DNA from: Syntrophaceae bacterium
Lineage (GTDB): Bacteria; Desulfobacterota; Syntrophia; Syntrophales; Smithellaceae
Direction: 5' to 3'
NCBI GenBank assembly: GCA_003139775.1
Contig: PLGI01000198.1
Location: forward strand, 964 to 64,963
Length of the DNA: 64,000 nucleotides
How positions within the stretch are numbered: position 1 is the stretch's first letter; every line of letters begins with the position of its first letter. The notes below the pieces were generated by a model. The model searched no databases, was not told the DNA's origin, and saw nothing but the letters and a program-made list of their open reading frames with translations. Positions 15,376 to 15,563 of the stretch are shown piece after piece. Made by a program: the position numbers and the translations under genes.

Positions 15376-15392
15376 ATCAAGAGCCGTGCCAG
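15376..15392 (-). promoter_or_regulatory. sigma-54 promoter of nifH
   Basis: Minus-strand reading CTGGCACGGCTCTTGAT = TGGCACG-N4-TTGA (one mismatch in the -12 GC), ~45 nt upstream of the nifH ATG. Confidence 0.65.
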
Positions 15393-15522
15393 AACATAAA
15401 GAGCGTTTATTATCTGGATATCGTCATTCTTAATGTACCGTGATAATCACGACATAAGAAATAATTTTTTCTGAATTGAAGTTTTGTAAGACTTGTAAAG
15501 ACAAAAGAAAAAACGACAAAGC

Positions 15523-15563
15523 GGTAGGAATATGAACATTAACCTTCAGATCGGTAGGAATAC
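15523..15563 (-). promoter_or_regulatory. Candidate enhancer (UAS): two GTAGGAATA repeats 30 bp apart flanking TAACC
   Basis: GTAGGAATA at 15524..15532 and 15554..15562, located between the nifA stop and the nifH promoter (~130-170 bp upstream). Near-identical block at 1786..1824. Confidence 0.5.

Follow-up and report, generated by a model that had tools for sequence, protein, structure and literature searches.

The DNA analysed here, a stretch of 64,000 nucleotides of contig PLGI01000198.1 from a Syntrophaceae bacterium (referred to below as the window and numbered from its first letter), contains the control region of a nifH operon, in which a repeated block lies between the sigma-54 type -24/-12 promoter of the operon and the gene of a NifA-like activator. 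This block is a conserved cis-element found upstream of sigma-54 promoters, not a generic repeat, and is most probably the enhancer of nifH, composed of two dyads that would both be bound by dimers of the adjacently encoded activator, which would then activate transcription by looping of the DNA. The mechanism, that of a sigma-54 enhancer, is ordinary; what is new is a clade-specific version of the enhancer, which serves a distinct clade of NifA-like activators in syntrophic anaerobes.

In the initial annotation of this DNA, the block was described as a pair of identical 9-mers, 30 bp apart, flanking the pentamer TAACC. Exact copies of GTAGGAATA are indeed present on the plus strand at 15524-15532 and 15554-15562, with the spacing of 30 bp and with an identity that stretches past the 9-mers to 11 bp (CGGTAGGAATA), and on the coding (minus) strand the block reads TATTCCTAC-CGATCTGAA-GGTTA-ATGTTCA-TATTCCTAC. 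Because close pairs of identical 9-mers are not rare in the window (32 pairs within 50 bp, versus 11 in shuffled sequences; for 11-mers, 3 versus 0.8), an argument from chance alone is not decisive, and the 9-mer repeat by itself proves little; its significance lies in its conservation in other genomes. The direct repeat also proved not to be the conserved unit. What is conserved is an inverted repeat, (T/A)TCCTAC-N6-G(T/A)(A/C)GG(T)T, which is present twice, the first dyad, CCTAC-N6-G(T/A)AGG, being followed 29-31 bp downstream by the second, CCT(A/T)C-N6-GT(A/C/G)(G/T) (coordinates in Table 1). The 9-mers are the left half-sites of the two dyads (CCTAC-N6-G(T/A)(A/C)GG), that of the distal dyad lying inside the copy at 15554-15562, and TAACC, or GGTTA on the coding strand, is contained in the distal right half-site. 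The right half of the proximal nifH dyad is weaker, with GTCG in place of GTAG, and the relatives have GTAGC, GTATG or GTGGC at this position. The promoter itself carries TTGA, not TTGC, as its -12 element.

The evidence for conservation comes from loci with relatives of the activator (given L numbers below), of which about 30 were taken from genome and metagenome collections; the anatomy of the element was read from about 20 related loci of Smithella, Syntrophus gentianae, Syntrophorhabdaceae and other Thermodesulfobacteriota. The element is present upstream of nifH in every compared locus in which nifH follows the activator gene, and two dyads 29-31 bp apart, with spacers that cannot be aligned, are found in 17 promoters from at least eight lineages. 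In these 17 promoters the distal and proximal dyads lie 144-182 bp and 114-151 bp, respectively, upstream of the -24 TGG. For the distal dyad the distance is 165-166 bp in nifH promoters of the Smithella type and of S. gentianae; it rises to 178 bp in L004 and L034 and falls to 156 bp in L036 and to 144-146 bp in front of the permease genes. The differences between these values are mostly close to one helical turn, and the distal nifH dyad occupies an equal position in L001, L002, L009-L016, L028 and L032. Furthermore, the 100 bp between enhancer and promoter are unalignable between lineages, while the dyads persist. The mean majority frequency is 0.90 for the half-site columns as against 0.69 for the spacer and inter-site columns (Mann-Whitney p = 6e-5, calculated on sequences that are related and not independent).

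A 20-bp matrix built on 25 non-identical sites has the consensus CCTAC-N6-GTAGG, with its information at positions 3-7 (CCTAC) and 14-17 (GTAG), T-rich flanks and six free central bases. This matrix was run over both strands of about 390 kb of DNA (783,592 positions), and 31 of the 32 matches of at least 17 bits sit 105-190 bp upstream of a -24/-12 match, a zone that comprises 0.7% of the scanned positions; the lone match outside this zone is a palindromic site read on the other strand. Within the window, scores above 20 bits are reached only at the nifH and permease promoters, and the strong dyad copies in the 64 kb number three, all upstream of sigma-54 promoters, which is not the pattern of an interspersed repeat with many copies irrespective of gene context. 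Sites were also found in sequences that had been held out: two upstream of nifH in L002, at +166 and +136, where nifH is 1.8 kb from the activator gene; two upstream of amtB-glnB in L043, 31 bp apart (CGTAC-AATTAT-GTAGG at +179 and CCCAC-TTTTAT-GTAGG at +148); and one upstream of a further, unannotated gene of 296 residues in L043 (TTCCTAC-CTTTTT-GTAGC at +147).

The arrangement around the dyads varies among the nifH loci. An extra gene lies between the activator gene and nifH in L009 (2781-3630), where the dyads stay with nifH, and in L028 (5436-5700) the 5' part of nifH has apparently been deleted right after an intact enhancer and promoter. Just past the -12 element, the 5' leader of nifH (15332-15375, minus strand) reads CTACA(A)GAAGGCAAATGTTG...GGTGAAAGGAG and has equivalents in L002, L009, L013 and L032. 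This leader is conserved even between lineages with unalignable upstream spacers, suggesting that either the start of the transcript or the leader is under constraint.

The same module is present upstream of an APC-family amino-acid permease gene. When its upstream region is aligned with that of nifH, the identity is 74% across 93 bp, so that the whole module is common to both, and the 32/39 identity reported earlier for the permease-promoter block (1786-1824) was reproduced. The proximal position is degenerate in the window permease, and the L017 ortholog, located directly downstream of the activator gene, keeps both dyads, with the proximal one reading TCCCTAC-CGTTTT-GTCGTTT (21.6 bits). In the relatives, amtB-glnB is preceded by good dyads in L002, L018 and L043, with one enhancer serving divergent sigma-54 promoters in L002 and L018; in these two loci a full CCTAC-N6-GTAGG dyad also precedes the activator gene, and a porin-like gene is preceded by dyads in L032. 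These sites support a small predicted nitrogen regulon, which in the window would consist of the nif operon and the amino-acid permease, and to which amtB-glnB and the activator gene would belong in the relatives.

The degenerate copy that had been proposed upstream of amtB in the window did not hold up. It scores 4.2 bits, compared with 13-24 bits for real sites, its region is disrupted by repeats, and it is not conserved in L001, L010 and L028; it was rejected as a confident site and may be no more than a weak single one. Copies of a short palindromic repeat, interspersed and resembling ccaaagcaagctttggg, occur at 20570-20835, 21000-21030, 21581-21641, 44696-44789 and 48010-48106, and several of them have inserted into the leader of amtB and the sequence upstream of it, which sets this control region apart from its counterparts in L001, L010 and L028. 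The window has six further sigma-54-like matches (8735, 22012, 25834, 47115, 58606 and 59177), none of them with an upstream dyad of more than 8 bits. A GGAGGAATA pair at 59416 and 59441, inside a gene and in opposite orientation, was taken as a chance occurrence.

The protein encoded directly upstream of nifH consists of GAF (residues 36-178), Sigma54_activat (211-377) and HTH_8 (478-514) domains, which is the domain order of NifA. Its match to the NifA equivalog TIGR01817 has a score of 525.9 bits, below the cut-off of 528.85, and covers residues 21-468, ending before the helix-turn-helix (HTH). The recognition helix (LG-L/I-TER-x-MGLRV) is not of the NifA type (TPRQVxY), which is represented by TPRQVAY in Pantoea, TPRQVGY in R. 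etli and TTRQMHY in Methylococcus, three proteins that follow the pattern WVQAKAAR-x-LG-x-T(P/T)RQ(V/M)-x-Y; with a helix different from that of NifA, a changed target sequence would be expected. The activators of all loci with dyads have the HTH sequence AAR-x-LG(L/I/M)(T/S)ER-x-(M/I)G(L/I)R(V/I)-x-K(F/Y), down to an overall identity of 55% (L018), while homologs that are about 52% identical and have another helix, AAEMVKTTVRKFAYKAK (L005, L006 and L019-L021), have no such sites nearby. Because its helix is not NifA-like and co-occurs with the motif, the adjacent activator is the best candidate for the binder. The earlier proposal that the local enhancer-binding protein recognises the block is strengthened to this extent, with binding itself inferred from the co-occurrence.

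In the proposed mechanism, the upstream activator sequence would comprise the distal TTCCTAC-N6-GAAGGTT and the proximal TTCCTAC-N6-GTCGTTT, whose centres are 30 bp, or about three helical turns, apart, which would place both dyads on one face of the DNA. A dimer of the GAF-AAA+-HTH_8 protein whose gene (15590-17161) lies immediately upstream would occupy each dyad, and filling of both would favour the assembly of the active AAA+ oligomer. Looping of the AT-rich spacer would allow this oligomer to touch the sigma-54 RNA polymerase 136-166 bp downstream, and the promoter would be opened by ATP hydrolysis, with a single type of enhancer driving the small nitrogen regulon.

Several observations count against this interpretation. 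The right half-sites in the window are imperfect (GAAGG and GTCGT), and no match to the IHF consensus WATCAANNNNTTR with at most one mismatch, as an aid to looping, is found between enhancer and promoter of either nifH or the permease gene. The related loci were found via the activator gene, so that the adjacency of activator and sites is partly a matter of construction, and the control loci with another HTH are also without a nearby nifH. In addition, the gene of a small Fis-like HTH_8 protein lies in the vicinity and is co-regulated in L018. Finally, D. vulgaris combines CTAC-N6-GTAG-like sites at nifH with a nif-associated activator whose helix is of the NifA type, so that a TAC-N6-GTA core is not exclusive to activators with the TER-x-MGLR helix.

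These last two points bear directly on an alternative in which the dyads are real and are bound by another protein, either the small Fis-like HTH_8 protein (18765-19031) or an NtrC-type regulator encoded elsewhere, with the activator acting from other sequences or from solution. The small HTH_8 gene belongs to an amtB-glnB-HTH-activator cluster in the window, L010 and L028, and in L018 it heads a divergent sigma-54 operon under the same dyads; however, no such gene is present up to 5-8 kb from the dyads in L001, L004, L032, L034, L036 and L043, and the recognition helix of the small protein, TTRRILDYKIHKY, shows no relation to the activator helix. Moreover, a sigma-54 promoter needs an AAA+ activator, so the small HTH_8 protein alone cannot activate one, and the only AAA+ activator that is consistently beside the sites has a co-varying HTH. 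As the dyad motif is also unlike the NtrC consensus TGCACC-N5-GGTGCA, we consider a different binder unlikely. The small HTH_8 protein could have an accessory role in the regulon, as a DNA-bending or modulating factor.

The failure of the initial annotation to find a canonical NifA site was borne out in that no TGT-N10-ACA is present in 15362-15600, but a TGT-N10-ACG element one mismatch from this consensus occurs at 15439-15454. This element is palindromic, is a perfect TGT-N10-ACA in L028, is symmetrically changed in L014 (GTTAT-T-ATAAC) and is conserved in the closest relatives, and if it were the functional enhancer the CCTAC repeats would be accessory or irrelevant. Against this, 13 of 15 related promoters lack the element and yet have the CCTAC dyads, both permease promoters among them; no lineage outside the closest Smithella group has it, and eight more distant nifH promoters with dyads are without it. 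Furthermore, its distance to the -24 TGG is just 47-62 bp, and the activator is without a NifA-type recognition helix. A functional role as the enhancer is thus very improbable, and the element may be the site of a second regulator. Least credible of all is a functionless block, be it the remnant of a local duplication, an interspersed repeat or an RNA element carried along with the promoter. The similarity between the nifH and permease regions does indicate duplication of a promoter module, and an unrelated short interspersed repeat exists near amtB, but the dyad matches are found only upstream of sigma-54 promoters, and half-sites, spacing and promoter distance survive amid unalignable flanks. 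No significant RNA fold over the dyads (z = +0.79) and no terminator after the activator gene were found, and the mismatches break base-pairing and are not compensatory. This reading is already largely refuted.

Compared with the known enhancers of nitrogenase activators, the Smithella-type dyad has the TAC-N6-GTA core and the two-site layout in common with them. AnfA of R. capsulatus and other alpha-proteobacteria has the consensus TAC-N6-GTA, and both anfH sites are bound and are needed for full expression (PMC7294313). As in the present case, the anfH enhancer consists of distal and proximal sites, direct repeats each with an inverted repeat and the TAC-N6-GTA core (PMC7294313), and it lies between the activator and H genes, upstream of a sigma-54 promoter, with a GAF-AAA+-HTH protein as activator. 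The half-site described here is longer (TCCTAC / GTAGG), and the activator lacks the N-terminal cysteine motif conserved in AnfA and VnfA (PMC7294313): the window protein has one non-conserved N-terminal cysteine (C9) and the L004 and L036 homologs have none, and the motif is absent from all full-length proteins among the 150 closest relatives of the DNA-binding domain. Two of the activator homologs have been named 'VnfA' by their depositors, which is at most a hint of related DNA-binding domains. The target is also different, as the genes downstream are of the Mo type, nifHDK with nifI1I2, in which nifD and nifK are adjacent with no G-subunit gene, and not anfHDGK or vnfHDGK. The likeness to AnfA and VnfA concerns the sites and their architecture.

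For A. vinelandii VnfA, the site GTAC-N6-GTAC has been given (Woodley et al. 1996, as cited in PMC9542535), and the motif obtained by chromatin immunoprecipitation sequencing is GT(T/A)C-N6-GTAC, which most promoters have twice (PMC9542535). These, too, are 4-N6-4 dyads with TAC/GTA, usually two per promoter at a similar spacing, in a regulon that has transport as well as nitrogenase genes; they differ in their outer bases (G/C, versus CC..GG here) and in their gamma-proteobacterial host, and VnfA itself has V-nitrogenase as its target and a GAF domain that binds an Fe-S cluster. Within the same phylum as the window, sites such as CTACAAAAATGTAG and CGACATTTATGTCG have been predicted, by computation only, upstream of nifH and the homocitrate synthase gene (nifV) of Desulfovibrionales and assigned to DVUA0143 (Kazakov et al. 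2015; PMC4641369). The presence of CTACAAAAATGTAG and CTACAGAATCGTCG about 95-110 bp upstream of GGCACATCCCTTGC was verified on plasmid pDV. The Desulfovibrionales motif has the same outline, C(T/G)AC-N6-GT(A/C)G, and the same context of sigma-54 nifH promoters and nifH-nifI1I2-nifDK gene order. It has a different core (ACA-N4-TGT) and a spacing of 18 bp instead of 30 bp, and it is closer to the promoter (about 95-110 bp). The pDV activator, 44% identical overall to that of the window, has a NifA-type helix of the (T/P)RQ kind, LTPRQMGYRIRQW; its gene (L038, pDV 184786-186333) encodes a protein ending in ...WIQHKAARELGLTPRQMGYRIRQWGL. In Additional file 2 of PMC4641369 the sequence of the pDV activator is listed under DVU1949 and another sequence under DVUA0143. 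Either the rows of this file are shifted or the assignment needs checking, which bears on the binder of the predicted CTACA-N4-TGTAG sites.

The canonical NifA upstream activator sequence of alpha-, beta- and gamma-proteobacteria corresponds to the present enhancer in its role, in its range of positions before a -24/-12 nifH promoter and in the domain order of its activator, and differs from it in sequence, half-site spacing and recognition helix, no conserved TGT-N10-ACA being present here. At glnAp2, two NtrC dyads with the consensus TGCACC-N5-GGTGCA lie about three helical turns apart, 100-140 bp upstream of the promoter, and nucleate oligomer assembly. The paired dyads, the three-turn spacing and the upstream position are the same in both systems; the consensus is different, and NtrC is a phosphorylated response regulator, not a GAF protein. 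The motif therefore merits the earlier description as a nitrogen regulon motif of its own insofar as it differs from the NifA and NtrC consensus sequences and marks a small regulon, while it has precedents in AnfA, VnfA and the Desulfovibrionales.

The subfamily helix of the activator, GNMAKAAR-x-LG(L/I)TER-x-MGLRV-x-K(Y/F), is found in Syntrophia and Syntrophorhabdia and, by similarity of the DNA-binding domain, in other phyla, for example Spirochaetota; a search of 1.84 billion representatives returned many proteins with this helix, all of them unnamed. It is conceivable, though we propose this only tentatively, that these proteins constitute a distinct and widespread NifA-like subfamily that recognises CCTAC-N6-GTAGG and in anaerobes governs Mo-nitrogenase as well as the uptake of ammonium and amino acids. 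Smithella species (Syntrophales, Thermodesulfobacteriota) are nearest to the window in the genome collection, and the window activator shares 91% identity with its Smithella sp. SCADC counterpart. When the DNA-binding domain alone was used to look for homologs, the result was short fragments only, and tblastn of this domain against plasmids gave nothing above 52% identity, with weak E-values throughout. The activator peptide was not found in article full texts and supplements, no DNA-binding domain of its type is present in the PDB, and AlphaFold2 modelled the lone 73-residue domain as one long helix without an HTH fold.

The nif operon of the window (G+C content 44%) has the order nifH-nifI1-nifI2-nifD-nifK-nifE-nifN-nifB and onward, with further minus-strand genes past nifB for ferredoxin-like, modABC-like, GNAT acetyltransferase, homocitrate synthase, UPF0060 and APC-family permease proteins. 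Upstream of the activator gene, the conserved dyad at 17324-17337 has counterparts in L001 (CTAC-AATTCT-GTAC) and L013 (CGAC-AATTCT-GTAC) and is similar to the sites of Desulfovibrionales and of VnfA; it may serve autoregulation as a site of low affinity, or another regulator may use it. The cyclase-like gene between the small HTH and activator genes is shared, among the relatives, only with L014. Small HTH_8 proteins of about 60-90 residues, with a conserved GNQT-x-AA-x-LG and an x-YKI-x-KY-x-ID helix, travel with amtB-glnB, and further copies are located at 2988-3182 in L010, at 4299-4493 in L028 and at about 4400-4575 (minus strand) in L018. Right after the stop codon of the small HTH gene in the window, TTCCTAC-CTTTAT-GGCGGAG (18745-18764, minus strand) gives a 14-bit match with no sigma-54 promoter downstream; a terminator-like GC-rich hairpin, gccgctgcaat...attgcagcggc, with a T-run follows it (read by eye).

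Table 1. Features of the nifH, permease, activator and amtB regions of the window, and dyad pairs of four related loci.
Feature	Coordinates	Strand	Sequence and remarks
Sigma-54 type -24/-12 promoter, nifH operon	15376-15392	-	CTGGCACGGCTCTTGAT; 15376-15391 is TGGCACGGCTCTTGAT; kept in all related nifH upstream regions
nifH	14507..15331	-	TIGR01287, 450.7 bits; first gene of the operon; ATG at 15331, preceded by AGGAG
Distal enhancer dyad, nifH	15541..15560	-	TTCCTAC-CGATCT-GAAGGTT; 23.7 bits; 166 bp upstream of -24 TGG
Proximal enhancer dyad, nifH	15511..15530	-	TTCCTAC-CGCTTT-GTCGTTT; 22.5 bits; 136 bp upstream of -24 TGG; 30 bp from distal dyad
TGT-N10-ACG element	15439..15454	-	TGTCGTGATTATCACG; one mismatch from NifA consensus; palindrome CGTGAT-T-ATCACG; 47-62 bp upstream of -24 TGG
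GAF-AAA+-HTH_8 enhancer-binding protein, 'NifA-like', 523 aa	15590..17161	-	directly upstream of nifH; DNA-binding domain encoded by 15593-15760
Conserved dyad upstream of activator gene	17324..17337	-	CCAC-AATTCT-GTAC; 121 bp upstream of sigma-54-like promoter TGGCATGAATCTTGAT (17201-17216, -)
Cyclase-like protein, 351 aa	17547-18602	-	weak adenylate/guanylate cyclase domain match; between small HTH and activator genes
Small Fis-family HTH_8 protein, 88 residues	18765-19031	-	
glnB-like P-II gene	18983-19324	-	
amtB	19337-20569	-	
Proposed 'degenerate' amtB copy	20946..20965	-	CCTTTAC-ATTTTG-GTTGGTT; 4.2 bits; about 115 bp upstream of TGGCACTGTCCTTGCC (20835-20850)
Sigma-54 type promoter, APC-family amino-acid permease	1658..1673	-	gene is open reading frame 1-1614, running off the window
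Distal dyad, permease	1803..1822	-	TTCCTAC-ATATCA-GAAGGTT; 22.0-22.1 bits; 146 bp upstream of TGGCACGAAGGATGCT
Degenerate proximal position, permease	1773..1792	-	TTAATAC-AGTTTT-GTTATTT; 2.7 bits
Dyads, L013			distal ATCCTAC-ATCCCC-GTAGGTT; proximal ATCCTTC-TATATG-GTGGCTT
Dyads, L004			distal TCCCTAC-TATTCG-GTAGGCT; proximal ATCCTAC-TTTTAG-GTAGCTT
Dyads, L032 (Syntrophus gentianae)			distal ATCCTAC-ATCCCT-GTAGCCT; proximal ATCCTAC-CTGTTG-GTAGCTG
Dyads, L036 (Syntrophorhabdaceae)			distal ATCCTAC-ATTTCA-GTAGGAT; proximal TTCTCAC-TTTTTG-GTAGCCT

How syntrophic and other anaerobic Thermodesulfobacteriota regulate nitrogen fixation is essentially uncharacterised, and the activators of these organisms are routinely annotated as 'NifA'. 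An annotation guided by the NifA consensus would miss the dyads, and the motif corrects this systematic gap. With a defined motif of fixed architecture, the nitrogen regulon, comprising the nif operon, amtB-glnB, the amino-acid permease, the porin-like gene and the activator itself, becomes readable from the genomes and metagenomes of organisms that are mostly uncultured. The motif also ties the control of Mo-nitrogenase in anaerobes to DNA recognition of the AnfA/VnfA type. If the activators do form a widespread subfamily of their own, recognition of TAC-N6-GTA, hitherto associated with the regulators of alternative nitrogenases, would be common or ancestral among nitrogenase activators, and TGT-N10-ACA would be a proteobacterial speciality.

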